From: Bacilli bacterium
Lineage (GTDB): Bacteria > Bacillota_I > Bacilli_A > RF39 > UBA660
NCBI GenBank assembly: GCA_900771805.1
Contig: CAAGPL010000045.1
Location: 90 to 64,089 of the forward strand
Length of the DNA: 64,000 nucleotides
Direction of reading: 5' to 3'
Position numbers and translations under genes: made by a program. Under the pieces are notes generated by a model. It was not told where the DNA came from, did no database searches, and saw only the letters and a list, made by a program, of their open reading frames with translations. Positions 1,827-63,998 of the stretch are shown here, one piece after another (position 1 is the stretch's first letter; the number at the start of each line of letters is the position of its first letter).

Positions 1827-1837
1827 AGATTCGCCAA

Positions 1838-2226: not shown

Positions 2227-2255
2227 ATCATAAATTATTGTTTTTTAATTGTCAA
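2227..2255 (-). promoter_or_regulatory. Candidate sigma-A promoter for ssrA
   Basis: Minus strand reads TTGACA, 17 nt, TATGAT, ending about 25 nt upstream of the mature tmRNA 5' end. Confidence 0.45.
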
Positions 2256-2277
2256 ATTATATCATTTTATGTATAAT
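2249..2277 (+). promoter_or_regulatory. Candidate sigma-A promoter for the 2286-3617 gene
   Basis: Plus strand reads TTGTCA, 17 nt, TATAAT. Its -35 overlaps the -35 of the divergent ssrA promoter. Confidence 0.4.
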
Positions 2278-2285
2278 TATTCTAG

Positions 2286-3617: not shown

Positions 3618-3646
3618 AAAATTCCAAGTAATTTGGAATTTTTTTA
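3616..3646. terminator. Bidirectional hairpin terminator
   Basis: aaaaattccaa-gtaat-ttggaattttt lies between convergent genes, with A and T runs on either side. Confidence 0.6.
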
Positions 3647-4036
3647 TTTCTTAGTTTTTACATTAGATTTATACTCTTCTAAAATTACATCTAAATCTTT
3701 ATATCTAATTTCTTTTTCATGACATTTTATAGGTTTTTCTAGCAGAGCATAAACTGAGCTACTCAAATCACATTGTTCTTCTACAACTAGATACTCACTA
3801 TTGTCATAAACGTCAACTGCAGGACGGAAATAACGTTCTCTTCTAACAATAGTATAAATTGCAGGATTAAATACTTTGGGTGCTAGTTGTCGTTTTACTA
3901 AATTATCAGGAAGGAATTCAGTTTTCTGAAGTTCAAGTACAACTAGTTGAGCTATATATAAATTATCAGAAGATATTTTTTGATTTTTAAGTTCTTTTTC
4001 TTCTTTTCTTTTTCTTCTTTTATCTAAGTATTTCAA
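3644..4036 (-). CDS. Hypothetical protein
   Basis: 130-aa ORF with a basic N-terminus and no family recognised. Coding potential judged only from ORF length and position between terminators. Confidence 0.4.
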   Translation of the reverse strand: MKYLDKRRKRKEEKELKNQKISSDNLYIAQLVVLELQKTEFLPDNLVKRQLAPKVFNPAIYTIVRRERYFRPAVDVYDNSEYLVVEEQCDLSSSVYALLEKPIKCHEKEIRYKDLDVILEEYKSNVKTKK

Positions 4037-4056
4037 TGTAATAACCTCCTATATAT

Positions 4057-4503
4057 TTATTTATTAAATAACGAAATTGTTTTTTGAGTATCTCTTTTTA
4101 TATCTTTTTCTTTCAAGCTTTGTCTTTTATCATAAAGCTTTTTACCTTTTGCTATACCAAGTAATATTTTAGCTCTACCATCTTTTAAATATAATTTAAC
4201 AGGAACCAGTGAATATCCTTCTTTTTCTACCTTATCCCTTATTTTATATATTTCTTTTTTATGAAGTAAAAGCTTTCTTTCTCTTCTTTCGTCATGATTA
4301 AAACGGTTTCCTTCTTCATATGTTGAAATAAACATATTAGTTAAGAAAACTTCACCATTTTTAACCCTAGCATAGCTATCTTTTAAATTACAGCTTCCTT
4401 TTCTAATAGATTTTATCTCAGTACCAGTTAAAACAATTCCACATTCATAAGTATCTTCTATAAAATAATCAAAAGAAGCTTTTTTATTTTTTATTTCTAT
4501 CAT
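4057..4503 (-). CDS. smpB: SsrA-binding protein SmpB
   Basis: 148 aa. [28 protein letters not shown] and [12 protein letters not shown] motifs. Located beside rnr and near ssrA. Confidence 0.95.
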
Positions 4504-5660
4504 TATTCTACCTCTACTATATTTCCATATCTGGTTAAAACACTTTTATACTTATTATAGTATGTTTCATAATTATTTAGAAGACTATTATTTAATTTTG
4601 TATAGGGATATACTTTAAAATTATGACTACCCTTAAAATAAGTATACAAAAGATTAGCTTTAATATTATTAAAAGTTATTTTTCCATTTAAATCTTTATT
4701 TATATTTAATGTAATAAGCGTTCCTGTTTGTTTATCAGGAGTATCTTGTGCCGAGATAAAATTACCTAGTGCATAAAATACTAATGTATCATTAATCATT
4801 TCTACTGGTTGAATACTATGTGCATGATTTCCTATTATAAGATTAACTCCCATTTTAGATAATTCTTCTGCAACCTGTTTTTGATTACTATTAGGATTTG
4901 TTGTATACTCTTCACCCCAGTGCATAGAAACAATAATAAAATCCACCTTATCTTTTATGATATCAATATCATTTTTAGCTTTTTCCTTAGAATAAATGTT
5001 AGTTAGATATTCCTTTCCACTAGGTGGTAAAAGTCCATTTGTAACAGTTGTATAAGCTAAAAAAGCGTACTTTATGCCATTTTTTTCTTCTATTTTAATA
5101 TTATTTTCTCTATCTTCATCTGATAAAGCTTGTCCTGTATAATAAACTCCTGATTTAGTTTTCCAATAATTTACTGAATTTATTACTCCTTTTTCTCCTT
5201 TATCCATGGTATGATTATTAGCTAAACTAACTAAATTAAAGCCTAAATTAACCATTGTATCTCCTATTTCTTCAGGAGAATTAAATCTCGGATATGCTGA
5301 AAGTCCTAAAGATTTACCACCTATTATACTCTCTTGATTATAAAAAGCTAAATCATGTCCTTTAATTAAAGGAGAAACCTCATCAAACATACTGTCAAAA
5401 GAATATGTTCCATCACTATTTAAGGCATCAGTATAAACAAATCTATGAATTAAGCAATCACCTACCATAACCATAGAAAGTCTATTTGACTCTTTATTAG
5501 ATTCAGTACTTTTTTTTGTTACCTTTTGTTTTTTATTAGTCTTTTTATTAGTTATATCATTTTTTTCATAAATGAAAAACCCCAAAAATATTATTATTGA
5601 TAATAATATTATATAAATTAAAACCTTAACCCACTTTTTTAACTTTCTCTTGCTCTTCAT
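4503..5660 (-). CDS. CapA-family metallophosphoesterase-like protein (PGA_cap domain), membrane-anchored
   Basis: 385 aa with an N-terminal TM helix. [23 protein letters not shown] and GNHAHS motifs are typical of the CapA/YwtB family. The start overlaps the rnr 3' end by 35 nt. Confidence 0.75.
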
Positions 5661-7767
5661 CTTTTACTTCTTCCTTTTTTATTTCAAAATCTATAAAAGC
5701 TTCCTCTTTAGATGCACTTTTACAAATTACCGTTACTGTATCTCCAATTCTATATCTTCTTTTTGTCTTTTGGCCTACCAAAGACATTGTTCTTTCATCA
5801 TAATTATAATAATCACCTTTAATATCAGTTATATGAACTAAACCCTCTATCATATTAGGTAGTTCAACAAACATACCAAATGAAGTAACACCACTTATCA
5901 TACCAGTAAATTCTTCTCCAATATGATCCATCATGTACTCAGCCATCTTCATATCTTCAACTTCTCTTTCACATTCTATTGCATCTCTTTCTTTTAATGA
6001 TGAATGTTCTGCAAGTTGTGGCAAATACTCTCTAAAGTAATCAGTCGTTTTTTTAGATTCGTCATTATTATATAAATATGTTCTTAAAAGACGATGCACG
6101 GTTGTATCTGGAAATCTTCTAATTGGTGAAGTAAAGTGGGTATATATTTTACTAGCAAGTCCAAAGTGACCTATATTGTCTGTTTGATATACAGCCTTTT
6201 GCATTGCACGAAGCATAAGTGATGCTAATATTTTATATTCTTTTTTATCTTTTAACTGACTTAATACATTTTCTATTGAAGATGGATACTTAATGTTTAC
6301 CTTGCCTGTTATTTTATAACCTAAAGAACTTACGAAATCCAAAAAGTCATTTACTTTTTCTTCTTTTGGAGTTCCGTGAACACGGTATATAAATGGTAAA
6401 TCCATATAGAATATATGTGATGCAACCGTTTCATTAGCTGCTATCATAAAGTCTTCTATCATTTTTTCACCAGTTGCACGTTCTCTTAAAACTACATCTA
6501 CTGGCTTTCCAGTATCATCTGAAATTATTTTAGCTTCATCAGTATCAAAATCAATTGCACCACGCGCTTTCCTATTATGTCTTATAATGTCTGCTAATTC
6601 TTTCATTAGTGATAAATCATTTGTAAAAGGAGCATATCCATCTTCTACAATACCTTCATCTAACCATTTATTAACTTTTTTATAAGTCATTTGAATCCTT
6701 GATTTAATAACACTTTCAAATATTTCATGAGAAACAACATTTCCCTTGTTATCTATTTCCATTACGCAACTTTGCGCTAAACGTTCTACTCCAGGATTAA
6801 GTGAACATATACCATTAGATAATTTATGAGGTAGCATAGGTATTACCCTATCTACTAAATAAACACTAGTTCCTCTTTCATATGCTTCATCATATAGATG
6901 AGTACCTGGTTTAACATAATATGAAACATCTGCTATATGAACACCTAACTCGTAATTTCCATTAGCAAGTTTTTTAATTGAAATAGCATCATCTATATCC
7001 TTTGTATCATCACCATCTATTGTAAATATTGTAACGTCAGTTAAATTTCGTCTTCCCTTTTTATCATCGTCGCTTACAGAATCTGGTATATCCTTTAATT
7101 CTTCTAAAACTTCATCAGGAAATTTAGGAGAAAACATATGTTTATAAACAATTGCCTCAACATCAACACCAACATCATTTTTATGGCCTATAATATTTGT
7201 TATCTCTGCTAAAACAGTATTTCTATCAAGTTCTTTAACAACGTTTGCAACAACGATATGACCTTCTACACAGTCTTTTGTACTTTCCTTAGTTAAAACT
7301 ATTTTTTGTTTAAACTTCTTATCATTTGGGATAATTGTCGGAATATCATTTATAAACTTAAATTCACCTACTATTGGTCCATAATTTCTAGATGCTATTC
7401 TAAGTACTCGCCCCTCTTTTTTAGAACCAGTATTTTTATTAGTAATTTCTACAATTACCACATCACCATCTATCGCACCATTTAAATGTTTGGCATCAAC
7501 GTGAATATCATCTTCACCTTCCATTAATACAAAACCAAAACCTTTATCCGAAATAGAAATCTTCCCCTTTTTTAAGTGACTATATTTAAATGCCATATAT
7601 TTATCCTTATTTGTATGATATATTGTTAGATTACTTTCTAGTTCATTTAGTACTTTTAACATTTCTTCTACTTCCTCAGTAGTATTTAAACCTAATATAT
7701 CTTTAAGTTCGATAGCAGTATATGCTCTATCTTCCTCTTCTAAAATATTTAGTATTCTGTCTTTCAT
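5626..7767 (-). CDS. rnr: Ribonuclease R
   Basis: RNB catalytic region (FTIDGDDTKDIDDAISI, TSPIRRFPD) plus a C-terminal S1 domain and a basic/acidic tail. The track start (GTG at 7776) lies inside the RBS aggtga, so ATG at 7767 (MKDRIL...) is preferred. Confidence 0.95.
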   Translation of the reverse strand: MKDRILNILEEEDRAYTAIELKDILGLNTTEEVEEMLKVLNELESNLTIYHTNKDKYMAFKYSHLKKGKISISDKGFGFVLMEGEDDIHVDAKHLNGAIDGDVVIVEITNKNTGSKKEGRVLRIASRNYGPIVGEFKFINDIPTIIPNDKKFKQKIVLTKESTKDCVEGHIVVANVVKELDRNTVLAEITNIIGHKNDVGVDVEAIVYKHMFSPKFPDEVLEELKDIPDSVSDDDKKGRRNLTDVTIFTIDGDDTKDIDDAISIKKLANGNYELGVHIADVSYYVKPGTHLYDEAYERGTSVYLVDRVIPMLPHKLSNGICSLNPGVERLAQSCVMEIDNKGNVVSHEIFESVIKSRIQMTYKKVNKWLDEGIVEDGYAPFTNDLSLMKELADIIRHNRKARGAIDFDTDEAKIISDDTGKPVDVVLRERATGEKMIEDFMIAANETVASHIFYMDLPFIYRVHGTPKEEKVNDFLDFVSSLGYKITGKVNIKYPSSIENVLSQLKDKKEYKILASLMLRAMQKAVYQTDNIGHFGLASKIYTHFTSPIRRFPDTTVHRLLRTYLYNNDESKKTTDYFREYLPQLAEHSSLKERDAIECEREVEDMKMAEYMMDHIGEEFTGMISGVTSFGMFVELPNMIEGLVHITDIKGDYYNYDERTMSLVGQKTKRRYRIGDTVTVICKSASKEEAFIDFEIKKEEVKDEEQEKVKKVG

Positions 7768-7802
7768 AAGATTCACCTATCTTTCTATATATATTATAAA
7801 AC

Positions 7803-7831
7803 AAAAAAAGACTATTAATAAAGTCTTTTTT
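7803..7831 (-). terminator. Hairpin terminator after secG
   Basis: aagact-attaataa-agtctt flanked by A/T runs, immediately after the secG stop. Confidence 0.55.
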
Positions 7832-7834
7832 ATA

Positions 7835-8044
7835 TTACATGTCTATTATTATACATAATAAGAAAAATATAATTCCTAAGACATAAGTTAAACGTGTAAT
7901 AAGTAATTCTCCACCACGTTCTTTTCTATTCATAAATAAGTCAGCATTTCCACCAGTTATTATATTTCCTGATTCTGCCTTCTCACTTTGTAAAAGAACT
8001 ATAATAATAAGTAAAATAGACACAACCATTAAAAATGTAAGCAT
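7835..8044 (-). CDS. secG: Preprotein translocase subunit SecG
   Basis: 69 aa, two TM helices, LLQSEK...GG motif. Conserved position between eno and rnr. Confidence 0.85.
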   Translation of the reverse strand: MLTFLMVVSILLIIIVLLQSEKAESGNIITGGNADLFMNRKERGGELLITRLTYVLGIIFFLLCIIIDM

Positions 8045-8123
8045 AACTATTCCTCCTAGCTACTACTTATTTTATCATATTATAATATGTATTTCAACAA
8101 AGAAATAGTAATTAATATATGAA

Positions 8124-9353
8124 TTAACCTTCTAGTTCTTCTTCAATTCTCATTAATTGGTTATATTTACATATTCTATCAGTTCTAGACATAGAACCTG
8201 TTTTTATTTGACCTAAATTAAGACCTACAGCTAAATCTGCTATTATCGTATCTTCTGTTTCACCACTTCTGTGAGATATTATTGTTTTATAACCATTTTC
8301 TTTAGCTAATTTAATTGTTTCTAAAGTCTCTGTTATAGTACCTATTTGATTTACCTTTAAAAGAATTGCATTTCCTGCTTTCATATCGATGCCTTTTTGT
8401 AAACACTCTTTATTTGTAACAAAAAGATCATCACCAACTAACTGAAGCTTATCTCCTAATTCTTTAGTTATTTTAGCAAACCCCTCCCAGTCATTTTCAT
8501 CTACAGGATCTTCTATTGAAATAATAGGATACTTACTTACTAACTCTTTATAGAAATCTATTAATTCATCAGTAGAAAGACTTCTTCCTTCTCCTTCCAA
8601 ATTATACTTACCATCACTATAAAACTCTGATGCTGCAACATCTATTGCTAGTTTTACGTCAACACCAGGCGTATATCCAGCTTTTTTAATAGCTTCCATA
8701 ATAAGTTCAAAACCTTCTGTATTTGAATCTAAATCAGGGGCAAAACCACCTTCATCACCAACTCCTGTTGATAATTTCTTTTCGTTTAATACACTTTTTA
8801 AAGCATGAAATACTTCTGAACCTACTCTTACTCTTTCATGAATAGTATCTCTTTGTGGTATTATCATAAATTCTTGAAAGTCTAATTTGTTATCAGCATG
8901 AGCACCGCCATTTAATATATTCATCATTGGTATAGAAAGAGTTTTTCCATCTCCAACATATTTATATAAAGGCACACTACTTTCTTTTGCAGCAGCTTTT
9001 AAACAAGCCATAGAAACGCCTAGTATTGCGTTAGCTCCTAAATTACTTTTTGTTTTAGTACCATCTAATTCTAACATGGCATTATCAATGCTATATTGGT
9101 CTTTAACATCCATACCAATTAATACTGGTCTTATTTTTTCATTTACGTTTTTAACCGCATTTAATACTCCCTTACCGTTAAATCTAGTTTTATCATTATC
9201 ACGCATTTCAAGAGCTTCACGCATACCAGTTGATGCACCAGACGGAACACATGCCCTTTCCATTATTCCATTTTCTAAAATAACATCTACCTCAACAGTA
9301 GGATTACCCCTAGAATCAAGTATCTCCCTTGCCTTTATATTTTTTATTTTCAT
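8124..9353 (-). CDS. eno: Enolase
   Basis: 409 aa. [29 protein letters not shown] and SHRSGETED motifs. Confidence 0.98.
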
Positions 9354-53342: not shown

Positions 53343-53840
53343 TTATCTTGGGTATCCCGTCGTCATAACCCCTCTTGTATTTACTCCTCCTATACCATCT
53401 TTACCATTACTTGTTTTTTCAAGTAACTCTAGCAAATCAACATTTTTATTTTTATCCGACAAACTAAGAGACAATGCAATTATTGCCGGGTCTAAGGCAT
53501 GTATATTTATTCTCTTTGGACTTGATGCAAAATTAGCACCCGCTTTTATTAATTTTTCATAATCTGATTGACACGCACCTGCAATAATTATTAATTTATC
53601 ATAATCACGTTGATATTTCCTGCAAACTTTAACCGCACCACAAAAATATTTTGAATTTTCTTTAGTTTTTGAATCATGGCCAGTTATAACAACTATATCA
53701 GGGTTTATATCTTTTAGATACTTTTCGATATTTTTTTCCATATCACTTTCTTCAGAATAAACTCCATAAGCCAAAACATTAGCATCCTTATAAAAAGATA
53801 AACATCTATTTAAATATTCCTTGTCACCATCTGCTGACAT
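53343..53840 (-). CDS. yabG: 3' segment of the sporulation-specific protease gene yabG (peptidase U57); 5' portion missing from this locus
   Basis: 165 aa. DGDKEYLNRCL, VVITGHD, IIAGACQS, GANFASSPKRINIHALDP and GGVNTRGV match the C-terminal ~165 residues of the ~290-aa B. subtilis YabG (from memory). In-frame TAA and TAG lie immediately 5' of the ATG, and a recombinase gene ends 51 nt away. Confidence 0.8.
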   Translation of the reverse strand: MSADGDKEYLNRCLSFYKDANVLAYGVYSEESDMEKNIEKYLKDINPDIVVITGHDSKTKENSKYFCGAVKVCRKYQRDYDKLIIIAGACQSDYEKLIKAGANFASSPKRINIHALDPAIIALSLSLSDKNKNVDLLELLEKTSNGKDGIGGVNTRGVMTTGYPR

Positions 53841-53891: not shown

Positions 53892-55469
53892 TTAATATAA
53901 TTTAATATTTTTTGTTTTTCCTACACCAAATTTAAATATTATTTCTATTGTATTATCTTTATTAATGATAACTTTTTTTATTAAACTTCTTATATATTCT
54001 TTATCCATTATATCTTTTTTTATAAATTTATTATAAATATCTATTAGCTCATTTTTCTTTTCTTCACAGTTCATTTCTTCTATTAATTCTTTCAAATTAA
54101 ATTCTAGCTTTTCCTTTTCTAAAGATATATCCTTTTTTCTTTTAATAAATTCCTCTAGACTAATATCGCCCTTTGTTTTAGAAAGATATATACCTTTAAG
54201 CCTCATATCACAATTTTCTATTGCTTTATTTATATTTTCAATCTTCATCTTTGGTCTGTGTTTTTGATTAACTTCCTTCATGACGTCATTTATCGCATCA
54301 TCAGAATTAACATAAACTTTGATCAAATCCTTTATATTATCTTCCAAAATTGTTCTTAATTTAGAATCATATAAAGTTCTATTATCACATTTTTTTCTGT
54401 TTATTGTTTTATTACAAGAAAAATAATATACCTCTTTCCCATTTTTCGTTTTTCGGCAAGCAGTCATTTCATTGCCACAGCATCCGCAAAAAACTAATCC
54501 TTTTAATGTACCATCATAATTATTTTTTTGCCTTCTAGCATTACTTTTAAGTTTTGAATTAGCTTCTATAAATAATTCATTACTAACAATTGCAGTATGT
54601 GCATCACTAATTTCTTTTCTATCTCTTATAGGAATCCATTTTCGTTTCTTTTGTCTAAAGTCCTTTTTTTCGCTCTTTCTTACTACGATAGATCCTGTGT
54701 AAGTTTTATTTTTAATTATCCTATATATTATTTTATCAGTCCAATCATAATAATATTTTTTATTTTTGCTTGGAGTAATATTCATATATATAACAGGTGG
54801 TGCAATTTTTTCATTATTTAAAACGTCTGCAACTTCTTTTCTTGACATACCAGATGCGATACTTGAAAATATTCTCTTAACTATACTTGCTGAATACTCA
54901 TCTACTTCTAAAAATCTTTTTTTATCTTTTTTTACTACTTTATAGCCATATGGTGCTGTAAAACCAATAAATTCTTTATTATTCGTTTTAGTAAGTGATA
55001 CTTGTTTTCTTTTAATAGAAGTATCTCTTACATGTTGACTATTTATAACGGATTTTATTTGCACAAGACTATTTTTTTGAAAGTCACTAGGATTATTAGA
55101 ATCGTAGCAATCATCAATTGCTATAAATCTAATATTATATTTTGGAAAGTACTCGCTTATATAGTAGACTGTATCAATAAAATCTCTACCTAATCTTGAT
55201 ATATCTTTAGTTATTACTGTATCAATTAAGCCGGCTTGAATATCTGAAATAAGTTTTTCAAATGCTGGTCTTTCAAAATTGATGCCTGAATAACCATCAT
55301 CAATATATTCTTTATTAATATGAAAGTTCATCTTCTTAGCATATTCATTCATTATACTAATTTGATTATAAATACTCTCTGAATAATCATTTTTAACGTT
55401 TGAATCTTTATTCGATAACCTTGCGTATGACACTACCATTTTTTCATTAATCATTGTTTGACTCTCCAT
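53892..55469 (-). CDS. Large serine recombinase (SpoIVCA/phage integrase type), junction-proximal
   Basis: 525 aa. VVSYARLS catalytic Ser, DDGYSG, KDISRLGRD, a recombinase domain, a Zn-ribbon (CGCCG...CNK...C) and a C-terminal coiled coil. Overlaps the upstream recombinase by 23 nt. An alternative ATG at 55454 sits behind ggagag. Confidence 0.9.
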   Translation of the reverse strand: MESQTMINEKMVVSYARLSNKDSNVKNDYSESIYNQISIMNEYAKKMNFHINKEYIDDGYSGINFERPAFEKLISDIQAGLIDTVITKDISRLGRDFIDTVYYISEYFPKYNIRFIAIDDCYDSNNPSDFQKNSLVQIKSVINSQHVRDTSIKRKQVSLTKTNNKEFIGFTAPYGYKVVKKDKKRFLEVDEYSASIVKRIFSSIASGMSRKEVADVLNNEKIAPPVIYMNITPSKNKKYYYDWTDKIIYRIIKNKTYTGSIVVRKSEKKDFRQKKRKWIPIRDRKEISDAHTAIVSNELFIEANSKLKSNARRQKNNYDGTLKGLVFCGCCGNEMTACRKTKNGKEVYYFSCNKTINRKKCDNRTLYDSKLRTILEDNIKDLIKVYVNSDDAINDVMKEVNQKHRPKMKIENINKAIENCDMRLKGIYLSKTKGDISLEEFIKRKKDISLEKEKLEFNLKELIEEMNCEEKKNELIDIYNKFIKKDIMDKEYIRSLIKKVIINKDNTIEIIFKFGVGKTKNIKLY

Positions 55470-57090
55470 TTATATTAAAATTAAAATATATCCTTACTTT
55501 TTTGTTTTTATCAATTGTTATTTTTTTAATAATTTCTCTTAATAAATTACTATCAGGATTTTTAACTTTTAAAAAATTATTGATTATTTTCTTTTTCGTT
55601 TTTTCATCATTAATGTCACTCTTGTCATCGCTTAGCATTCCATTTAAATCTGATATTTTATCTGACAAGATTAATTTTTCATTACTAAGGTCTTTCTTTA
55701 TATTAACAAACTCTTCCGTATTAATAATTCCTGACATCTTGTCTTTATACAAATCACTAATTGCTTTGTCAACATTTTTTAGTTTTACATAGTACTGATC
55801 TAACTCCGCTTGATAATTATTTAGCAAATCTCTATCTTGAAGAGCTAAATCATATGCTTTTGACAATTCTTTATTATCAGAATATTTAATAAGAATTTTC
55901 CTTATTTCATCTAATACTAATTTATTCAAAGCCTCTTCCCTATAATAATGCATAGAACATACATTACTCCTATATGTAGCATAAGTCCTACAACAATATA
56001 CTGCATAAATAGAATTTTTACTTTTTTTAGACTTACTTTTACATCTTCTAACAAGCATAGCCTTTCCACAATCTTCACAAAAAACTAATCCTTTTAACAA
56101 ATAATCATATTTTACATGTCTAATATCTAGTTTAATGCTTTCAGCCAATTTCTTGTTTGCAAGCTCAAAACTTTTCTTATCTATTATAGGTTCATGATTA
56201 TTTTTTTTAATTATCCACATATTTTTAGGTAACAATCTTTTTTTCTTTGATTTCAAACTTACTCTTTTATATTTTCCTTGAATCAAAGTTCCTATATATA
56301 CTTCATTAGTAATGATATTATTAATTGCACTACCCTTCCATAAATTAGTAGTAAAAGTTTTTTTGATTTTCTTATTATTATAAACACTTGGTGGTAATAT
56401 TCCTTCATTCGTTAATGATCTTGCTATCATATTTGGAGACTCACCATTAATTTTCATTTTGAATATTCTTTTTACAATATTAGCTGCATATTCATCAACC
56501 ACTAATTTTCTATTATCATCTTTAGATCTAGCATATCCATATGGAACTGTACTTCCAACAAATAAGCCTTGTTCCATCAAATTATGTCTTACAGAAATTA
56601 TCTTCCTTGATGTTTCCTTTAAAAACATATCATTAATAACAGTCTTTAATGGAATCATATCATCATTACTTCTTGGTTCTTCGGTATCAAATTCGTCCAA
56701 TATTGAAATATATCTAACATCATTTTCAGGAAAGTATTTATATATATATACTCCTGTACCTATAAAATCTCTACCTAATCTTGATGTATCCTTTGTTATT
56801 ACACAATTTATAATTCCGCACTCTATATCATTTATTAATCGTTTGAAGGCTGGTCTTTCAAAATTACCACCCGAATAACCATCATCAACGTAATAATCAT
56901 ATATTTCTATACCGGCTTTTTTTGCATAATCTTTTATGCATTCTTTTTGATTTACTATACTGGAACTCTCACCATCATTATTTTCAGTTATAGATAGTCT
57001 AGCATATCCAGCTGCTTTGTATGATTTTCCTGTTATATCTTGTATCAATTTTGCGTTATCTCCTTTCTGCTTAATAACCATACAAATCAT
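55447..57090 (-). CDS. Large serine recombinase (second, upstream copy)
   Basis: 547 aa. AAGYARLS, DDGYSGGNFERP, KDTSRLGRD, a Cys-rich ribbon (CEDCG...CCR...C) and a coiled-coil tail. No clear RBS before the first ATG. An in-frame TTG behind aaaggag (codon 15) is an alternative start. Confidence 0.9.
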   Translation of the reverse strand: MICMVIKQKGDNAKLIQDITGKSYKAAGYARLSITENNDGESSSIVNQKECIKDYAKKAGIEIYDYYVDDGYSGGNFERPAFKRLINDIECGIINCVITKDTSRLGRDFIGTGVYIYKYFPENDVRYISILDEFDTEEPRSNDDMIPLKTVINDMFLKETSRKIISVRHNLMEQGLFVGSTVPYGYARSKDDNRKLVVDEYAANIVKRIFKMKINGESPNMIARSLTNEGILPPSVYNNKKIKKTFTTNLWKGSAINNIITNEVYIGTLIQGKYKRVSLKSKKKRLLPKNMWIIKKNNHEPIIDKKSFELANKKLAESIKLDIRHVKYDYLLKGLVFCEDCGKAMLVRRCKSKSKKSKNSIYAVYCCRTYATYRSNVCSMHYYREEALNKLVLDEIRKILIKYSDNKELSKAYDLALQDRDLLNNYQAELDQYYVKLKNVDKAISDLYKDKMSGIINTEEFVNIKKDLSNEKLILSDKISDLNGMLSDDKSDINDEKTKKKIINNFLKVKNPDSNLLREIIKKITIDKNKKVRIYFNFNINGESNND

Positions 57091-57127
57091 AAATTATTAT
57101 TAAAAATAAATCGAATGTGCAAATTTA

Positions 57128-57247
57128 TTAATAATTTTTATTTTGCACAATTGACATAACATATTTTTTAAAAATTTCAGTTATAAGCTGATCTATTGGT
57201 TTTCCATTTTCATCATATATACATAATACTAATTCTTCGTTTTCCAT
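57128..57247 (-). CDS. Small ORF (39 aa) with strong RBS
   Basis: gggaggaaaaaATG, then MENEELVLCIYDENGKPIDQLITEIFKKYVMSIVQNKNY. Below the track cut-off. Its stop lies inside the spacer of an 8-bp inverted repeat (57116-57149). Confidence 0.35.
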   Translation of the reverse strand: MENEELVLCIYDENGKPIDQLITEIFKKYVMSIVQNKNY

Positions 57248-57338
57248 TTTTTCCTCCCATTAAACCTATGACCATAATATTTTTTTCATACATAAAAAAA
57301 ATAGGATATTTAATCGTTTTAAAAAAGCATAAATTACC

Positions 57339-57530
57339 CTATCTGTTGATTTTAGATATTTTATATTTTAAATAAAAGTCTTTTCCAAAAATATTCATTA
57401 ATTTACTTTTATCTTTTATATTCTGCTTTAATAAATTATCTATTTTTCTAATTGCATCCCTTTTGTTATATGCATTTACTTTCATACTTGTTTTTTGTAT
57501 AAATTTAACATCAACTAAATAATCTTTCAT
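57339..57530 (-). CDS. Small phage-type protein, paralogue B (63 aa)
   Basis: Shares the pattern MK-[DN]-[YF]-x-[VI]-x-V-[KR]-[FL]...V.A....AI..[IV]...L..N with the upstream ORF. ATGA start/stop overlap with it. Confidence 0.55.
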   Translation of the reverse strand: MKDYLVDVKFIQKTSMKVNAYNKRDAIRKIDNLLKQNIKDKSKLMNIFGKDFYLKYKISKINR

Positions 57531-57751
57531 ACATTCACCCTAACAAATGGAATTGATAAATTTTCTCTTGATCTTGACTTTAATTCTTTCTTTTGAAGTT
57601 TATATTTTATATTATTACTATTATTAATGTTTAAAATATCATTATTTTCGAGTGTGTCTTTTACCATATTAATTGCTGATAATTCATCATCAGCTATCAC
57701 ATTAAAATTAATATTTTTACACAACCTTACTTTTATATTAAAATTTTTCAT
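57527..57751 (-). CDS. Small phage-type protein, paralogue A (74 aa)
   Basis: First gene after a terminator and a structured leader. RBS aaagaaagga. Paralogous to 57339-57530. Confidence 0.55.
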   Translation of the reverse strand: MKNFNIKVRLCKNINFNVIADDELSAINMVKDTLENNDILNINNSNNIKYKLQKKELKSRSRENLSIPFVRVNV

Positions 57752-57893
57752 TACAAAATTCCTTTCTTTTTATTTTAAGAGGGTTTTAGTTTGCCCACAA
57801 CTCCTGTGCCAATAAGGTCACGTTACCTGGCGTTTTTTACTTAGTGACATATCGGTGATTTTCACTAAGGCTAAATTGTCAAAGAACACCCTG
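57752..57893 (-). promoter_or_regulatory. Unusually GC-rich structured leader upstream of the small-protein/recombinase operon
   Basis: Contains TTGACA (57878-57883, minus strand) without a good -10. Also an 8-bp inverted repeat cttagtga/tcactaag (57840-57869) and a gcca..aggt-cacgtt-acct..tggc hairpin (57808-57831). No ORF. Confidence 0.3.
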
Positions 57894-57938
57894 TAACAAA
57901 AAAAACAGGCAAAAGGAAATAATATCCTTTCACCTGTT
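57894..57938 (-). terminator. Rho-independent terminator after the sigma-r4-like regulator gene
   Basis: Minus strand reads aaacaggtgaaagga-tattatt-tccttttgcctgtt followed by T8. Confidence 0.65.
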
Positions 57939-57973
57939 TGTTCACTTAAATGTGATTTAGCAACCTAAATCTC

Positions 57974-58450
57974 TCATTTTTTTGAAATTTTATAAAATTC
58001 TTTTAATTTTTCTAATGCCAATTTCAAACTTTTAGAAATAGATTGATGTGTTGTATTCTCTTCTTCAGCAATCTGATAAATGTTTTTATTTTGAAAATAA
58101 TATTTAATAAGTCTTCTTTTTTGAACTTCTGATAGCTTATTAATGAAATTTAATAAATCCTGATATTCATATTTTTTCAAAATAATATCTTCTAAATTTT
58201 CATGTTTATATACTAATCTTGAATTAATAGTCCATTCATAAATCTCACTATGTTCTATATGTCTTTTGTATTCGTTAATCTCACAAACATCATCAAGTTC
58301 AAATCTATCCATTAAATCAAATACATCTTTTCTTACTTCAATATTTCTTAATATATTTTTACTATCTTTAAACAAAACATAATATTTTTCACCACTTACC
58401 TCTAGAGTATATGGATTATCTTTTTTTCTGCTTCTTTTTGGTCTTTTCAT
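57974..58450 (-). CDS. Sigma-70 region-4 / ArpU-like HTH regulator (mobile-element associated)
   Basis: 158 aa. Basic N-terminus (KRPKRSRKKDNPYTL). C-terminal LSEVQKRRLIKYYFQNKNIYQIAEEENTTHQSISKSLKLALEKLK resembles a sigma region 4 HTH. Confidence 0.6.
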   Translation of the reverse strand: MKRPKRSRKKDNPYTLEVSGEKYYVLFKDSKNILRNIEVRKDVFDLMDRFELDDVCEINEYKRHIEHSEIYEWTINSRLVYKHENLEDIILKKYEYQDLLNFINKLSEVQKRRLIKYYFQNKNIYQIAEEENTTHQSISKSLKLALEKLKEFYKISKK

Positions 58451-58512: not shown

Positions 58513-58562
58513 ATAAAAAAAATCCTAGATGGGATTATAAAACTAATACCACATCTAGGATT
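58513..58562 (-). terminator. Rho-independent terminator (11-bp stem)
   Basis: aatcctagatg-(20 nt)-catctaggatt followed by T8 on the minus strand, about 270 nt downstream of the endolysin stop. Confidence 0.65.
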
Positions 58563-58738
58563 TAAAGTTACAAATATAAATAAAAACCAAAACCCACTAA
58601 TCATAGCAGCACACCCATCAATGCCACAACAATTTACTACAATAGTAAAAGTGTATAGATGTACTGCTAAATATCTAAACCTTATACCTAAAAATATTAT
58701 TTACTACTATAAAGGCATTGCTCCTTTTTTTGCTTGCT

Positions 58739-58829: not shown

Positions 58830-59555
58830 TTAATATGAAAAACCATAACTTATTAAAGCTTTTAATGTTTTCGGACCAATTCTACCATCTATTTCATCAT
58901 CATATCTTCCATCTTTTTTCGCTCTTTTTTGAAATTCAATAACCCATTTTTCCAAATATGGTCCAAATAAATTTCCATCCAATACATCATGTGCATCTTT
59001 TTTGTTATTATAAAAATACCCATAATATTGTTCAGCAAAAAAATTGCATATTTTCCCAATGTTTACATGATAATCTCCACGTTTAAAACATATTTTTCCA
59101 TCAAAAAACGAATTATTAGAAGTATTTGTTGAGCAGTTATAATTAAACGTCTCTGGATTTAAATATTTTCCTGTGGATAAATCAACTATTGATAAATGTA
59201 AATGGATACCTGTTGCTTTTCCACTCATACCAGTATATCCAAGTAAAGTTCCCTTTGATACTGTTTGTCCATTATGACAGTTTATACTGGATAAGTGATA
59301 GTGTAACATTTTAACATTAATTCTAGGATATTTTACCCACACATATTTTCCACCTAATTTATCGGTTCCACAACTTAAAACACTTCCATTTTCTATCGCA
59401 TACTGAGGTAATTTTATACCATTCGTTCCATAATCTGTTCCACTATGATAACTACTAGTATATCCTCCTTTAGTATTTATTCTTTTTCTTGTGCCAAACC
59501 CAGATGTCATATAATGAGTTGCGTTCTTGAAAATTAAATTTGTTATGTTACTCAT
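58830..59555 (-). CDS. Endolysin: M23 metallopeptidase with C-terminal PG_binding_1 domain
   Basis: 241 aa. HSGTDY (HxxxD) and GIHLHLS (HxH) M23 motifs. C-terminal ...FQKRAKKDGRYDDEIDGRIGPKTLKAL peptidoglycan-binding repeat. Confidence 0.85.
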   Translation of the reverse strand: MSNITNLIFKNATHYMTSGFGTRKRINTKGGYTSSYHSGTDYGTNGIKLPQYAIENGSVLSCGTDKLGGKYVWVKYPRINVKMLHYHLSSINCHNGQTVSKGTLLGYTGMSGKATGIHLHLSIVDLSTGKYLNPETFNYNCSTNTSNNSFFDGKICFKRGDYHVNIGKICNFFAEQYYGYFYNNKKDAHDVLDGNLFGPYLEKWVIEFQKRAKKDGRYDDEIDGRIGPKTLKALISYGFSY

Positions 59556-59784
59556 CTTCTATTACCTCGTATATAGGTTCTTGATTACTATTATTACTTT
59601 TTGTTTTATCAATTTGATCTTTATTAAAAAAGTATGTTGCTATCATACCCACTACTAGCATAAAATTATCGCTATCAATTCTTCCTGACACAGACAAATA
59701 AAAGAACGCTGCAAATGTAAGCAGCGTTATTATTGATTTTACTTTAAGTAAACTAACTAATGACTTTAATATCATTTCTTTCAT
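59548..59784 (-). CDS. Holin-like protein (two TM helices, charged C-terminus)
   Basis: 78 aa. Overlaps the endolysin start by 8 nt and the upstream ORF by 4 nt. Hydrophobic helices followed by an acidic tail. Confidence 0.65.
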   Translation of the reverse strand: MKEMILKSLVSLLKVKSIITLLTFAAFFYLSVSGRIDSDNFMLVVGMIATYFFNKDQIDKTKSNNSNQEPIYEVIEDE

Positions 59785-60080
59785 TTTCTATCATCCTCCT
59801 TTACATTTGGTAATTCATATAATTTATTAATAATTTTAGTAACCATGCCATTACCACCTAACTTGTGATAATTTTCATACATTTCCTTTAAGTTTTCTTT
59901 CATATAACTTGGGCAATATCCTAATTTTTCTTGTTTATCATAAATTCTAATAATTTCATTTCTTAAAAGAGCAATCATTCCGTTTTTTAACCCTATATAC
60001 TGTTTAAAGATATAAATGATACCAGAAGTAATAGATGTTAATAGTATTTCTATCCAATACTTTATTATAAAATTTATCAT
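59781..60080 (-). CDS. Membrane-anchored lysis-cassette protein
   Basis: 99 aa. N-terminal TM helix, then YMKENLKEMYENYHKLGGNGMV. The family occurs beside holins in Firmicute phages (recollection, not verified). Confidence 0.5.
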   Translation of the reverse strand: MINFIIKYWIEILLTSITSGIIYIFKQYIGLKNGMIALLRNEIIRIYDKQEKLGYCPSYMKENLKEMYENYHKLGGNGMVTKIINKLYELPNVKEDDRK

Positions 60081-60187
60081 AAGTTCACCTCTTCAAATAA
60101 TAAAAAACATAATGATAATAAAATCAAAATGTTTTTTAGATAAGTATTTTTTATTATTTTCTGAGTTAATTTTTTATATGGTTTATC

Positions 60188-60571
60188 TTAACTTATTATA
60201 TAGTTTATTATTTCTTCATCACTTTTTTTTGTTCCATCAGAATTATAATAAATCAACACTGTTTCAATTGCCATTTTTAACATAAACATATACAGTATAA
60301 GTTCACGTCCATAACTTGTATTTTTATATCTATTTATATATACATCTGTTTTTTTTCTCATATCTTTATCGATAGTAAAAATTTCATAATTAAAATCTTT
60401 GACACATCTTGTGAACTTGTCAAATAACCCACTATAATATTCATCAGCCATTTCAAGATTAAGTTCATAAATTGCTAGTGGAGTTTTTCTTTCATTTATA
60501 TTTTTTACAAGATTTAAATCAGATTCATATCTTTTTTTTAAAAGGAACCTTTGTCTTTCTTTTTCATTCAT
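60188..60571 (-). CDS. Putative immunity protein for the RHS C-terminal toxin
   Basis: 127 aa, cytoplasmic-looking. Begins 29 nt after the RHS stop on the same strand. No family recognised, so the call is positional. Confidence 0.5.
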   Translation of the reverse strand: MNEKERQRFLLKKRYESDLNLVKNINERKTPLAIYELNLEMADEYYSGLFDKFTRCVKDFNYEIFTIDKDMRKKTDVYINRYKNTSYGRELILYMFMLKMAIETVLIYYNSDGTKKSDEEIINYIIS

Positions 60572-60599
60572 AAATTTATCTCCTTGTTTATATTTGTTA

Positions 60600-63500
60600 T
60601 CACTTTAACTTATACCAAAAGCGAATAATTTTACCATCGCTCATGAAATTTCCACCTTTTCCAAGATAATCTCTAACACCCCATATGGCATTTTTATGTG
60701 TATAATCGAATGTGTATTTTATAACACTTCTGTTTCTATTAGAAAAACTAATAGCATCATTAGTATATTTTACAATATTGTTACCTTTAGAAAATTCTTC
60801 ATCTATAACATGCTTTTGATAATGATATTTCATAGAATAATACCCATTATCGAAACTACCTTTATACCATTTAGAAGCCGCAATTGCGGTTCGCGTAATT
60901 CCATAACCAATTCCTGCTATTGAACCTACTATTGAACCCCACATTGCTCCATCAGATCCACCAGTAATAGCTGCTTTAAAAGACCCTTTATTACTTTTTC
61001 TTTTTTTCTTATTTTTGATTACTGATTTAGTCGCACCATATGCTGCACCAATTATAGTTCCACCAATTGCAAATTTTAATGCAGATGATGCTATATATCC
61101 AGCTACTCCAGAGGATGATCCACCTGTTGCCACTGTTACTACTGCACACGTTACAATAACAGCTGCAGCCGTTATAACTTTTAAAGCACTTTTAATTTTC
61201 CACTTAGGCCAATTACCATTTTCATCAGCATAATTAATCGGATTGTTTAAAGCATACTGATACATATTATTACCATCTAAATTCCCAATATCAGATATTC
61301 CTATATCGGCATTAATAAATCTTCTCCAATTTGGATTATAATATCTTTCATTTAAATAATATAATTTTGTTTCTTTGTCGTAGTAAAAACTTCTATATCT
61401 AAATGGATTTATGTTTGCAATATGAGAAATATCGGTTGATACATCATTGTCGTTTTCATCTGTAATAGAAATCATTTTCCCCCACGAATCATACTTATAT
61501 CTAGCAACTACATTGAAATTACAATCTAATATACCAACAATATCATCTTTGCTATTTTTCATATAATAATATATATCATCATTGTATTTAAATCCAATTA
61601 AATCATCTATATTACTACGTAAATAGTATAACACATTATCACCACTTTTTTCAAATATAATATCATTTCCATCTAAATAATATTTAGTTTCAATGCCATT
61701 TATAATTTTGCTCGTTCTAATACCATTATCATCATATTTATATGTTATATTATTTGATCCATCATTATATGATTTTAATTCTCTTCCGTTGGTCCAATTT
61801 AAATATATATTATTACCAATAGATAGAGGATTACCAATCTCATCATAACTTATTTCATGACCATTAAATTCTGTTAATTGATCTTCCCAAGCCTCATTAT
61901 TATACTTATATGTATTTTGATTAATAAATTCATATGTTTCAATATTATACACTCTTTCAAATAATATATTTCCAACATTGTCATATTTATATTTTGTAAT
62001 TGTTTTATCTTCATAATTAATTTCTTTTATAAGTTGATTAAAATTGTCATAATAATATTTGTTTACTATATTACCATTTTTATAAATATGAGTCATATTA
62101 TTTAAAGAATCATATTTATATAAAAACTTATCTGTTCCAGCCGTTAAACTTTTTATCATTGCTGACGTATTTTTACCATTTTTTAAATATTCATAATTCG
62201 TTTCATAAGCATCATTTATTTTACTACTTTTTATCCTTCCTATTGTATCATAACTATAATCTATTTTATTGTTATCAAATAAAGTACTGATTATTAAATC
62301 ATCATCATTAAAATTATTAGTTATTTCATTACTTAAATTATTCATATTATATTTAATTCCTATAACATTATCATTGGAATCATAATTATATTTAATTTTA
62401 AAATCATTAAATCTATATTCACTTAATTTTCCGGATAGATTATAGGAATATTTAATAATAGCATTATTTGATATTATTTTTGCTAGATTACCATTATTAT
62501 TATATTTATAATTATATATATCATCTATTTTAGTAGCCTTTTTTAATCTATTAAATTCATCATACTCATAATCAATAGAATCGCCATTCCCATAAACAGA
62601 TGATGTTAAACAATCACCTTGGTCATAGTAATTGCTAACAAGATTAACATCTTCTCCAATTTTGATATTTTTAATATTTAAAAATTCGTCGTATATGAAA
62701 TTATATTCCTTTGTTCCATATGTAATCTTACTTAATAAGTTCTTATCATTATATTTATATTCTACTTTTCTTCTTCCTTTAGAAACTTTTGTTAATTCAT
62801 TTTTATCACTATAAGTATAATATATTACATTCCCCTTAGAATCTGTTTCAGAATGAATTAATCCTGTTAACTCATCCATTTCATATAAACTAACATTACC
62901 AAATGGATCAGATATACTCTTAATAAATCTACCATCTTCTGTGTATTTCGCAGTATTTTCAATAAATAAATCAGAATCTATTGTCTCAAAATAAAATTCA
63001 AAACGAAAATCATCTTCTATTAAATCTGCTGCCTCTAAACCTGAATCAGTGATTTTTAAATATTTATCTTCTAGTTTTAATTTTATATAATAACTTCCAT
63101 TTTTATTCTTTTGAAGTTTAAATAATGATTTATCATTATTATAACTAGTTAGTAATACAAAGTTATCAATAATTGTAAAATATTTATCGTTAATTATAAA
63201 ATGGCTTATTTTAAAGTATTCTCCATCCTTTTTCAACTCCCATAAACTATGATTATAGTCCTCATCAGTTACAGAAATTTTATTGGCAATATTTTGCAAA
63301 TAATTATTTGTACCTTTTAATCTTATTTTGTATAAACCATCAGTTACATTACCAATAATATTATTTTTTTTAATTATGGTTGCAACCGGATTATTATTAT
63401 TATCATACTTTATTTGATTAGATATGCCCATATCAGATATACCATTAATAACTCTATCAGTAATAATATTATCATATTCAAATGCAAATCTTTTTCCTTT

Positions 63501-63998
63501 TGGATTAATCATTTGAATTAATTGATTATTTTTATCATAATTAAACTTATCACTATTATTTTCTGAATTATTTTCCAATATTACATTACCATTATCATCA
63601 TATTCATAATAAACATTTTTCACATCCTTAAATAAACTCATATTTGAAATATAAAAATTATTTGCAGTGTATTCATGACTTATCAATAATGTAATGGAAG
63701 TGTAATCTCTTTCAGCAACAAAATCATTTGATACATATTGCCAAGCTTCATCATTTATGTTTAATATTGGGCTTGGTAATACACAACCACCAGATTCTTC
63801 ACTATCAACATATTTGAAAATAATGAAAACTCTGCTCCCATAGTATTCTGATAAATTGGAATTTATGCCTTCATTTTTATACCAAAACGATATATTAAAT
63901 GTATCCCCACCTTTACCACTTATGTTGAACTTTTTCTCCATATTCGTAGTATGAACTGGGTTAAGTTTAGTTTTTAACGCCTTAACACCATTATCCAA
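60600..63998 (-). CDS. RHS/YD-repeat polymorphic toxin (N-terminus outside the window)
   Basis: More than 1132 aa. The apparent start is only a TTG at the window edge. Many YD repeats (YEYDDNGN, YKYNNNGN, YKYDNVGN...). RHS core end is RYYNPNWRRFINAD...YQYALNNPINYADENGN, followed by a 203-aa variable C-terminal region. Confidence 0.9.
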   Translation of the reverse strand: MDNGVKALKTKLNPVHTTNMEKKFNISGKGGDTFNISFWYKNEGINSNLSEYYGSRVFIIFKYVDSEESGGCVLPSPILNINDEAWQYVSNDFVAERDYTSITLLISHEYTANNFYISNMSLFKDVKNVYYEYDDNGNVILENNSENNSDKFNYDKNNQLIQMINPKGKRFAFEYDNIITDRVINGISDMGISNQIKYDNNNNPVATIIKKNNIIGNVTDGLYKIRLKGTNNYLQNIANKISVTDEDYNHSLWELKKDGEYFKISHFIINDKYFTIIDNFVLLTSYNNDKSLFKLQKNKNGSYYIKLKLEDKYLKITDSGLEAADLIEDDFRFEFYFETIDSDLFIENTAKYTEDGRFIKSISDPFGNVSLYEMDELTGLIHSETDSKGNVIYYTYSDKNELTKVSKGRRKVEYKYNDKNLLSKITYGTKEYNFIYDEFLNIKNIKIGEDVNLVSNYYDQGDCLTSSVYGNGDSIDYEYDEFNRLKKATKIDDIYNYKYNNNGNLAKIISNNAIIKYSYNLSGKLSEYRFNDFKIKYNYDSNDNVIGIKYNMNNLSNEITNNFNDDDLIISTLFDNNKIDYSYDTIGRIKSSKINDAYETNYEYLKNGKNTSAMIKSLTAGTDKFLYKYDSLNNMTHIYKNGNIVNKYYYDNFNQLIKEINYEDKTITKYKYDNVGNILFERVYNIETYEFINQNTYKYNNEAWEDQLTEFNGHEISYDEIGNPLSIGNNIYLNWTNGRELKSYNDGSNNITYKYDDNGIRTSKIINGIETKYYLDGNDIIFEKSGDNVLYYLRSNIDDLIGFKYNDDIYYYMKNSKDDIVGILDCNFNVVARYKYDSWGKMISITDENDNDVSTDISHIANINPFRYRSFYYDKETKLYYLNERYYNPNWRRFINADIGISDIGNLDGNNMYQYALNNPINYADENGNWPKWKIKSALKVITAAAVIVTCAVVTVATGGSSSGVAGYIASSALKFAIGGTIIGAAYGATKSVIKNKKKRKSNKGSFKAAITGGSDGAMWGSIVGSIAGIGYGITRTAIAASKWYKGSFDNGYYSMKYHYQKHVIDEEFSKGNNIVKYTNDAISFSNRNRSVIKYTFDYTHKNAIWGVRDYLGKGGNFMSDGKIIRFWYKLK

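Follow-up and report, generated by a model that had tools for sequence, protein, structure and literature searches.

An RHS polymorphic toxin gene between a phage-type receptor-binding partner and a lysis-type cassette on an integrative conjugative element of an uncultured gut Bacilli bacterium

Results

Organization of the toxin locus

The subject of this analysis is a gene module built around an RHS polymorphic toxin gene at the end of a 64,000-nucleotide stretch of DNA (the window), which corresponds to C45:90-64089, where C45 is contig CAAGPL010000045.1 in the genome of a Bacilli bacterium (1.21 Mb, 91 contigs, 89.7% complete). This genome and all genomes compared with it are metagenome-assembled. 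Read along the minus strand, the module encodes a sigma-like regulator, a protein with a Gp10_C domain, a coiled-coil protein, the RHS protein, an immunity-type protein, a 99-residue protein here called T99, a holin-like protein and an M23 metallopeptidase; the first three genes and the 5' part of the RHS gene lie beyond the window. A preliminary description of the window had listed five minus-strand reading frames in the order RHS, immunity, transmembrane protein, holin-like protein and M23, the last three overlapping by 4 and 8 nucleotides. The open reading frame (ORF) listing bears out both the order and the overlaps, the gene for the 78-residue holin-like protein sharing 4 nucleotides with T99 and 8 with the M23 gene, and it amends the gap between the RHS stop and the immunity-type ORF from 29 to 28 nucleotides.

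Spacing is similarly close elsewhere in the module. The Gp10_C gene overlaps the coiled-coil gene by 19 nucleotides, 20 nucleotides separate the latter from the RHS gene, and the 107-nucleotide gap between the immunity-type ORF and T99 contains a good ribosome-binding site and no terminator-like hairpin. The M23 gene follows on the same strand, at a distance of about 1 kb from the RHS stop. A consensus terminator scan of the interval from the end of the RHS gene to the end of the M23 gene returned nothing except a palindrome inside the 78-residue gene (59705-59728), a perfect, GC-rich inverted repeat with an 8-bp stem, AACGCTGC...GCAGCGTT, that is terminator-like on both strands. Past the M23 gene, a hairpin followed by a T-run (58515..58563, minus strand; AATCCTAGATG..CATCTAGGATT then TTTTTT, read by eye) probably marks the end of the operon; this AT-rich hairpin was not listed by the same scan. 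The tight spacing, the overlaps and the presence of a hairpin only after M23 support the anatomy of a single operon.

The RHS protein and its variable C-terminus

The RHS gene is a single ORF of 2093 codons that reaches C45:66970 (window-equivalent 66881). By the ORF listing, the window contains its 3' 54% (60600..63998, minus strand, open at the window end), encoding residues 962-2093 of 2093 and the stop. Repeats of the RHS/YD shell are present (PF05593 RHS_repeat, 1.7e-23; TIGR01643, 1.8e-17), and the Rhs-associated core domain occupies residues 1797-1889 (61215..61493, minus strand; TIGR03696, 61 bits against a cut-off of 32.5); these matches make the RHS identity of the product solid. Further domains comprise DNRLRE (residues 240-417), a CBM-like 'spike fibre' (residues 786-922) and a weak ricin-type trefoil. 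In a sample of 200 genomes of the same bacterial family, full-length homologues were found in 24; they are 37-51% identical over residues 1 to about 1900, their C-termini are unrelated, and many loci have orphan rhs-core fragments downstream of the gene. Unrelated C-termini on a conserved body, together with such orphan fragments, constitute the signature of polymorphic toxins.

In the variable C-terminal toxin region (residues 1890-2093; 60603..61214, minus strand), hydrophobic segments rich in Gly and Ala precede a domain of about 90 residues that belongs to no known family. The region gave no Pfam match at E values up to 5 and no sequence match in the PDB, and only six homologues of this C-terminus exist among 5.8 billion proteins, all of them in unnamed RHS proteins. 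A homologous C-terminus (43% identity over 212 residues) is carried by a 2426-residue RHS protein of another lineage (L171:12400-13281, ENA contig_2287), with the junction NP.N.SDE.G.WP.W, Gly-rich segments and a strongly conserved stretch of about 90 final residues (SMKYHYxKHV, KGNN..KYT, GKI..FWY). Upstream of the gene for that protein lies one for a sigma-70 region-2 protein, and downstream an unrelated ORF of 100 codons.

The preliminary description, which ended at position 64000, had pointed to the missing N-terminus as the place to look for a signal peptide, LXG domain or tail-fibre anchor, and the complete protein has none of the three. The N-terminus (MKEIELIGKRKAREKHF...) is hydrophilic, with no signal peptide and nothing hydrophobic before residue 1896; residues 1896-1923 form the sole hydrophobic stretch of the whole protein, and a stop precedes the ATG by only 9 codons. 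LXG, PAAR and phage tail-fibre anchor domains were not found with Pfam, NCBIfam or the N-terminal model, and neither Pfam nor NCBIfam gave a match to LysM or cell-wall-binding (CWB) repeats. The earlier statement that no secretion system is visible also holds: none is encoded locally, and a search of the genome, which is 89.7% complete, did not find the type VII secretion system (T7SS) markers WXG100 (PF06013), YukC (PF10140) and YukD (PF08817).

An AlphaFold2 model of residues 1-460, built from 73 homologues (predicted local distance difference test score, pLDDT, 87), is all-beta. Its DNRLRE part resembles the CBM96 glycan-binding modules 7vbo and 8wab, and the N-terminus is modeled as a CBM96-like glycan-binding module. 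The two-domain architecture of these 460 residues is matched by a 1379-residue metagenomic siphovirus protein (Foldseek against a viral fold library, E 2e-30), and the same library contains CBM96 modules in phage tail enzymes and depolymerase-type proteins. Homologues of the RHS N-terminus are nearly absent from phages, with three weak matches in 50,697 phage records.

One member of the family departs from this pattern: a 2160-residue protein (locus L038, G114:C7:27088-33570) has a clear N-terminal signal peptide and no upstream Gp10_C gene. Within the RHS family, a signal peptide and a Gp10_C partner appear to be mutually exclusive.

Partner genes upstream of the toxin

Directly upstream of the RHS gene, on the same strand, lies the gene for a coiled-coil protein of 134 residues, preceded by that for the Gp10_C protein of 399 residues. 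These neighbors do not form a tail module. The C-terminal half of the latter protein matches PF21939 (1.4e-24), and the protein matches tail and tail-collar-fibre families of the PHROGs. Its Gp10_C domain has matches in 270 phage records, whose annotations include antireceptor, short tail fibre and tail collar fibre. A structural model combines a lectin-like N-terminal beta-sandwich with a central helix, and its closest neighbors in Foldseek are T4 gp10 and a Klebsiella phage baseplate (cup) protein. Homology places this upstream partner among receptor-binding or tail-fibre-tip proteins of phages.

The lysis-type cassette

T99 (59781..60080, minus strand; phrog_4105, 6.6e-18) has a hydrophobic N-terminus and is considered an accessory protein of the lysis cassette. 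Its homologues in phages CS266P1, FP_Lugh and DO134P1 lie within lysis modules, beside genes for holins or small membrane proteins and endolysins.

The next gene encodes the holin-like protein of 78 residues (59548..59784, minus strand), which has two hydrophobic segments and a charged, acidic C-terminal tail. The preliminary description had called it a holin, and its size, hydropathy and position fit that call, from which we too infer a holin; family support is lacking, since the sole family match is phrog_13256 (7e-12), a family of unknown function. A tblastn search of the phage collection returned no match, nor was there a match to the TcdE family. Homologues occupy the equivalent position in four related loci (L044, L045, L060 and L095).

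The endolysin-type M23 metallopeptidase of 241 residues (58830..59555, minus strand) is clearly assigned (PF01551, 8.6e-14). It retains both zinc motifs, HxxxD (HSGTD) and HxH (HLH), and matches PHROG endolysin and metallo-endopeptidase families. The peptidoglycan-binding domain that had also been ascribed to it corresponds to a weak C-terminal PG_binding_1-like match below the cut-off (PF01471, E 9e-4). Neither a signal peptide nor an N-terminal hydrophobic segment is present in the protein. We also considered the M23 enzyme as a conjugation hydrolase and rejected this assignment; the surrounding element encodes a CHAP/VirB1-type protein, and related elements have no M23 gene in their cargo slot.

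The T99/holin-like cassette is the sole one in this genome, no other T99- or holin-like gene being present. By its family matches, we read it as a phage-type cassette that is detached from any prophage.

The immunity-type ORF

The candidate immunity gene (60188..60571, minus strand) encodes 127 residues, has a good ribosome-binding site and is named for its position. Its product has no match in Pfam, NCBIfam or PHROGs and no predicted signal peptide. An orphan paralogue (54% identity) is encoded in the core chromosome at C2:9488-9871 (minus strand), with no RHS gene near. That copy stands alone between uvrB and a group made up of ftsE, ftsX and an EnvC-like M23 gene.

Recurrence of the module in related genomes

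One genome per species was scanned for the locus comparison, which yielded 80 RHS loci, all hosted by uncultured small-genome 'Bacilli' or 'Tenericutes', including Clostridium sp. CAG:1000 and Mycoplasma sp. CAG:776. In 79 of the 80, from different species, the gene directly before RHS encodes a Gp10_C protein; a coiled-coil gene is present in 27 and a sigma-like gene in 28-29. Endolysin-type hydrolases, counted with iterated profiles for M23 and GH25 types only and within 4 kb upstream or 6 kb downstream, flank 30 of the 80 loci. Where at least 4 kb was sampled on both sides (37 fully sampled loci), they flank 20, with 8 upstream and 13 downstream. This genome contains seven other M23/GH25 matches per 1.2 Mb, which sets the chance of adjacency within 10 kb at about 5.6%; against this expectation, 20 of 37 has a binomial tail of 6e-16, or of 2e-5 if 6 of 12 lineages are counted as independent. 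Adjacency of endolysin and RHS genes is far above chance, though the loci are not independent of one another.

The flanking hydrolases are of M23 type, of an M23 variant with CW_7 and LysM, or of GH25 type, and they come in cassettes of four makeups: T99, the holin-like protein and M23; T99, another small transmembrane protein and the M23 with CW_7 and LysM; T99, a small transmembrane protein and GH25; and, in upstream-placed cassettes, an XhlA-like transmembrane/coiled-coil protein (weak, E 0.008), a small transmembrane protein and M23. Many of these loci, among them L045, L073, L077, L080, L095, L054 and L102, are compact islands between genes shared with the core of this genome; they contain no phage genes and leave no room for a prophage.

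A reverse search found T99 homologues in 48 of 400 other genomes. All nine with at least 53% identity adjoin the end of an RHS gene or a Gp10_C gene. The more distant homologues (29-41% identity) have no more than a weak tail-fibre match within 1.5 kb, and that in L157 alone, so they presumably belong to ordinary prophage cassettes. The close T99 clade is specific to the module. In L102 (about 1-9000) and at G366:C1:117145-133236, three to four T99 copies or 5' parts alternate with orphan rhs-core/C-terminal fragments, an arrangement which suggests that T99 serves as a 3' anchor, or downstream homology arm, for the exchange of toxin/immunity cassettes.

Two further loci from other species, L044 (with G401:C3:107887-109386) and L085 (with G404:C9:60264-61802), contain the whole module from sigma-like gene, Gp10_C and RHS to the lysis cassette and a second sigma-like gene, with a serine recombinase gene directly after it and core genes rather than conjugation genes upstream. 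They may represent small integrative islands dedicated to the toxin module.

The conjugative element and its sigma-like genes

The module is carried by an element of about 35 kb set between two halves of yabG. The C-terminal part of this gene (53343..53840, minus strand; PF05582 positions 108-280) forms the left boundary, and the other half lies at C45:88875-89207 (PF05582 positions 1-111). Next to the left boundary is a recombination module (53892..57751, minus strand) of two small genes (57527-57751 and 57339-57530) and two large serine recombinase genes (55447-57090 and 53892-55469) whose products have Resolvase, Recombinase and Zn_ribbon_recom domains, in an order common to related elements. 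Genes upstream of the first sigma-like gene encode a helix-turn-helix protein of repressor type, a 490-residue CHAP protein, a 771-residue VirB4-like ATPase, a 612-residue TraG/VirD4-like protein and a MobA/VirD2 relaxase (PF03432), as well as a primase-like protein, a sortase and a thioester adhesin, ParA and ParB. No phage structural gene (capsid, portal, terminase or tape measure) is present in the element. It is an integrative conjugative element (ICE) and not a prophage; the latter identity was considered and rejected on the relaxase, VirD4, VirB4, CHAP and recombinase genes and the lack of phage structural genes.

Related ICEs in the same bacterial family share a CHAP gene, variable cargo such as ABC transporters, a sigma-like gene, the two small genes and a recombinase. 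From this order, the second sigma-like gene and the recombinases belong to the backbone, and the stretch from the first sigma-like gene to M23 fills the cargo slot. The genome encodes the sporulation markers Spo0A, SpoIVA, YabG and an SpoVT/AbrB-like protein; genomes of the family measure just 0.8-1.7 Mb, and the organism appears to be a spore-former with a very small genome. The preliminary description had proposed that the element may be excised only in the mother cell, but an element with full conjugation machinery is expected to excise in vegetative cells too. Elsewhere in the genome, at C77:678-4226, a third copy of the sigma-like gene lies together with two small genes and one for a serine recombinase; at the protein level they are 85-97% identical to the corresponding ICE end in genomes G279 and G204, and the group looks like a second, related integrative element.

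Copy A of the sigma-like gene (160 residues; C45:68789-69271, outside the window) heads the RHS operon, and copy B (158 residues; 57974..58450, minus strand; phrog_11138) belongs to the ICE backbone; the two are 48% identical. The sigma-like protein comprises region 4 only, and its matches lie below the cut-offs (Sigma70_r4, 22 against 25.7 bits; TIGR02937, 32.7 against 42.9). Downstream of copy B is a hairpin with a box, TC-TTTGACAA-TTTA (57876..57939, minus strand), and a near-identical element follows copy A (C45 approximately 68580-68790; L005:10577-10788, minus strand), so that one leads into the recombinase operon and the other stands ahead of the Gp10_C/RHS operon. Across species, the box is found about 84-138 nucleotides (mostly 84-114) past the sigma-like stop in 14 of 32 such regions, and the hairpin stems differ in sequence yet covary or stay paired; several of the regions have a further conserved leader, AATTAAATACGTTCCTACTATTCTAGCACGTTAA. 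The hairpin and box may constitute a conserved promoter, an attenuator or an RNA element. Their duplication suggests that the toxin/lysis operon may be controlled by the same logic as the excision operon.

Discussion

We lean, with modest confidence, toward the view that the module derives from phages and that its lysis cassette releases the toxin, in the manner of the type 10 secretion system or the C. difficile pathogenicity locus (PaLoc). The form of this view that we favor, cassette-dependent release of a complex between the Gp10_C protein and the RHS protein, seems to us likewise somewhat better than an even proposition. The lysis genes are the only export-related genes in the operon, which, with no T7SS marker found in the genome and no Sec signal, favors a cassette-dependent release. 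In addition, the sole relative with a signal peptide, that of genome G114, is without a Gp10_C gene, which also counts in favor of this view. The preliminary description had left two readings side by side. The second of them, that the lysis genes serve to release the toxin, gains comparative support from the lack of an export signal, the recurrent and varied cassettes and the phage-free islands, with release itself a prediction.

Based on the arrangement and content of the genes, we propose the following model, in which co-transcription, complex formation, cassette-dependent release, target binding, toxicity and immunity are all deduced properties. Expression of the operon would start at the conserved control element that follows the sigma-like gene, probably in only some of the cells. 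Lacking an export signal, the RHS cage with the C-terminal toxin inside would build up in the cytoplasm, where it would probably associate with the trimeric receptor-binding-type partner. The holin would then let the signal-less M23 endolysin reach the wall, and the toxin complex would exit by lysis or by holin-dependent leakage. Outside, the glycan/receptor modules of the partner, together with the CBM96-like, CBM-like and ricin-like modules of the RHS protein, may bind neighboring cells, to which the C-terminal toxin would be delivered, siblings being protected by the immunity gene.

A more far-reaching proposal, which we offer tentatively and hold to be possible rather than probable, is that the module encodes a free, tail-less Gram-positive bacteriocin of phage origin. 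Its trimeric receptor-binding protein would aim a signal-less RHS cage at the glycans of competitors, the cassette would burst a sacrificial subpopulation, and the paralogous sigma-like pair with its near-identical control elements would tie release to induction of the ICE.

How does the module compare with known systems? Tc toxins are RHS cocoons that are released by the type 10 secretion system in Yersinia (PMC10847048, PMC10847046, PMC9718411). As in YenTc of Yersinia entomophaga and the Tc pathogenicity island (Tc-PAI) of Y. enterocolitica, a very large, signal-less RHS/YD-cocoon toxin is encoded here beside a phage-derived holin/endolysin cassette, with a separate receptor-binding component alongside. 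Tc systems are released by lysis of a specialised subpopulation, which here is predicted from the genes alone. They occur in Gram-negative bacteria and attack insect cells, and they also require a spanin and translocate through a pentameric TcA, whereas the present module belongs to a monoderm gut bacterium and has a small Gp10_C fibre-tip partner; its polymorphic C-terminus, immunity-type gene and the orphan cassettes are features of interbacterial weapons.

The PaLoc of C. difficile, to which other large-clostridial-toxin loci are related, comprises the sigma factor gene tcdR, the toxin genes, the holin gene tcdE and the endolysin remnant tcdL (PMC10516005, PMC12150058, PMC12485765). Common to both loci are a small sigma-type regulator, a signal-less giant toxin, phage-type holin-like and endolysin-type genes and a Gram-positive host that forms, or here appears to form, spores. 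The PaLoc toxins are glucosyltransferases rather than RHS cages, and the endolysin that is a remnant there is intact here. Conversely, the sigma-like protein of the present module is a sub-cut-off match to region 4 only, its 78-residue protein has no TcdE-family match, and it includes a phage receptor-binding partner and an immunity-type gene that the PaLoc does not. The uviA, uviB and bcn genes of plasmid pIP404 in C. perfringens presumably follow a related locus logic.

WapA of B. subtilis is an RHS toxin of the WapA type. Those RHS toxins described so far in Gram-positive bacteria are Sec-dependent WapA proteins, such as the Sec-exported, wall-associated RHS protein of Streptococcus suis (PMC12704120). 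The present protein shares with them the RHS cage, the Rhs core, a polymorphic C-terminus, a downstream immunity-type gene and an N-terminal DNRLRE domain. WapA proteins additionally have a Sec signal peptide and LysM/CWB wall-binding domains, and their export runs through Sec, aided by SecF-like and sortase proteins; here, in contrast, a signal peptide and LysM are missing, and the protein is paired with Gp10_C and a lysis cassette.

Two comparisons with phage-derived machinery remain. Contractile-tail antibacterial weapons of phage ancestry also have their own holin and endolysin, are released by lysis of the producer and are targeted by receptor-binding proteins of tail-fibre type, but the present module has no sheath, tube or baseplate, and its killing unit would be an enzymatic or membrane-active toxin in an RHS cage. 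The PBSX lysis cassette of B. subtilis, xhlA-xhlB-xlyA, has the same order of membrane-anchored accessory protein, small holin-like protein and endolysin in overlapping genes; T99, however, is not of the XhlA family, and the cassette here is detached from a prophage.

A 2012 catalogue of polymorphic-toxin trafficking by Zhang et al. lists no lysis-based route and never mentions holins (PMC3482391). In a full-text search, the literature coupling Rhs with a lysis cassette or holin was confined to Gram-negative work on Tc and the type VI secretion system, and the literature searched contained no published description of a Gp10_C-RHS-lysis module.

Several observations weigh against the release model or narrow it. 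About half of the fully sampled loci have no detectable adjacent endolysin of M23 or GH25 type, which means that the cassette is either optional or provided in trans. The loci are mutually related, and the counts overstate their independence. No named holin family stands behind the label given to the 78-residue protein, and the immunity role of the 127-residue ORF is assigned from its position only; the 100-residue ORF that follows the homologous toxin C-terminus in L171 gave no BLASTP alignment to it, and the two C-terminal helices of these proteins are alike by eye only. The Rhs core ends in an atypical junction, NNPINYADENGNW, instead of the canonical DPxGL; relatives show the variants NNPI..D..G and, in L054, DPTGEL, and the type found here also accompanies the homologous C-terminus in the unrelated RHS protein of L171. 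Four loci (L099, L100, L104 and L107), the only such cases, are prophage-like: a tape-measure fragment is followed by a tail protein, a 650-residue fibre that shares the tip domain, a lysis cassette, Gp10_C and finally RHS. Since all the parts are phage-like, shared descent from the fibre/moron/lysis end of a prophage could produce their adjacency without any common function.

This last point leads to an explanation that we consider unlikely, namely that the Gp10_C gene and the cassette are decaying tail-fibre and lysis leftovers around an inserted RHS/immunity moron, with no role in release. It draws on the phage type of every part other than RHS, on the four prophage-like loci just described and on the canonical phage order of fibre, cargo and lysis. 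It is related to the first reading of the preliminary description, which saw prophage cargo in a tail-fibre or moron position; as to the locus, that reading fails, given an ICE without phage structural genes, and what survives of it is phage ancestry, visible in the receptor-binding-type Gp10_C partner, the phage-type cassette and the four prophage-like relatives. Decay, however, would hardly spare the Gp10_C gene at 79 of 80 loci, including those in which a tip of about 180-220 residues is all that remains of it and every other phage gene is gone, nor leave an intact cassette with its catalytic motifs. Repeated gain or rearrangement would be needed to place cassettes upstream of the pair in some loci and downstream in others, with three or more types of endolysin; the compact core-gene islands leave no room for a prophage; and the RHS N-terminus has next to no homologues among phages.

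About as improbable, in our estimation, is a different route of exit or action, whether an unrecognised exporter, contact-dependent display after limited wall remodeling or mother-cell lysis during sporulation, with the cassette serving transfer of the element, release of extracellular DNA in biofilms or wall remodeling for the ICE. Such a route would accommodate the roughly half of complete loci that have no detectable adjacent endolysin. The organism appears to sporulate (Spo0A, SpoIVA), which makes mother-cell lysis an available exit, and ICEs do need a wall hydrolase. This ICE, however, already has its own in the VirB1-type CHAP protein, the cargo slots of related ICEs contain no M23 cassette, the RHS pair is accompanied by the cassette outside ICEs as well, and T7SS markers were not found.

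Finally, we consider it very improbable that the toxin is delivered not as a free complex but by a phage or phage-like particle whose genes lie elsewhere, with Gp10_C and RHS as accessory parts of its tail: the baseplate/fibre fold closest to T4 gp10 and the Klebsiella phage cup, the siphovirus match to the N-terminal 460 residues and the four prophage-like relatives speak for it, but this ICE and most related islands have no phage structural genes, the genome has no other T99- or holin-type cassette, and we know of no particle that carries a 240-kDa RHS cage.

What is the relevance of cassette-dependent release of a Gp10_C-RHS complex, if it occurs? The locus adds several elements to what has been described: a module in the cargo slot of a yabG-inserted ICE; duplicated control elements behind paralogous sigma-like genes; a Gp10_C gene preceding RHS in nearly all loci; a lysis cassette at 20 of 37 loci, on either side and with swapped enzyme types; and a close T99 clade that is module-specific, with T99 copies interleaved with orphan cassettes. 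How 240-kDa RHS toxins are exported through the membrane and wall of Gram-positive bacteria is unresolved even for the Sec-dependent WapA proteins (PMC12704120), and the module offers a genetically testable hypothesis for both the release and the targeting of a signal-less RHS toxin. Being cargo on a conjugative element, one that also interrupts the sporulation gene yabG, the module is mobile here. If the model is correct, the principle of the type 10 secretion system and the PaLoc would extend from host-directed toxins to interbacterial warfare among the abundant, uncultured, small-genome Bacilli of the gut.

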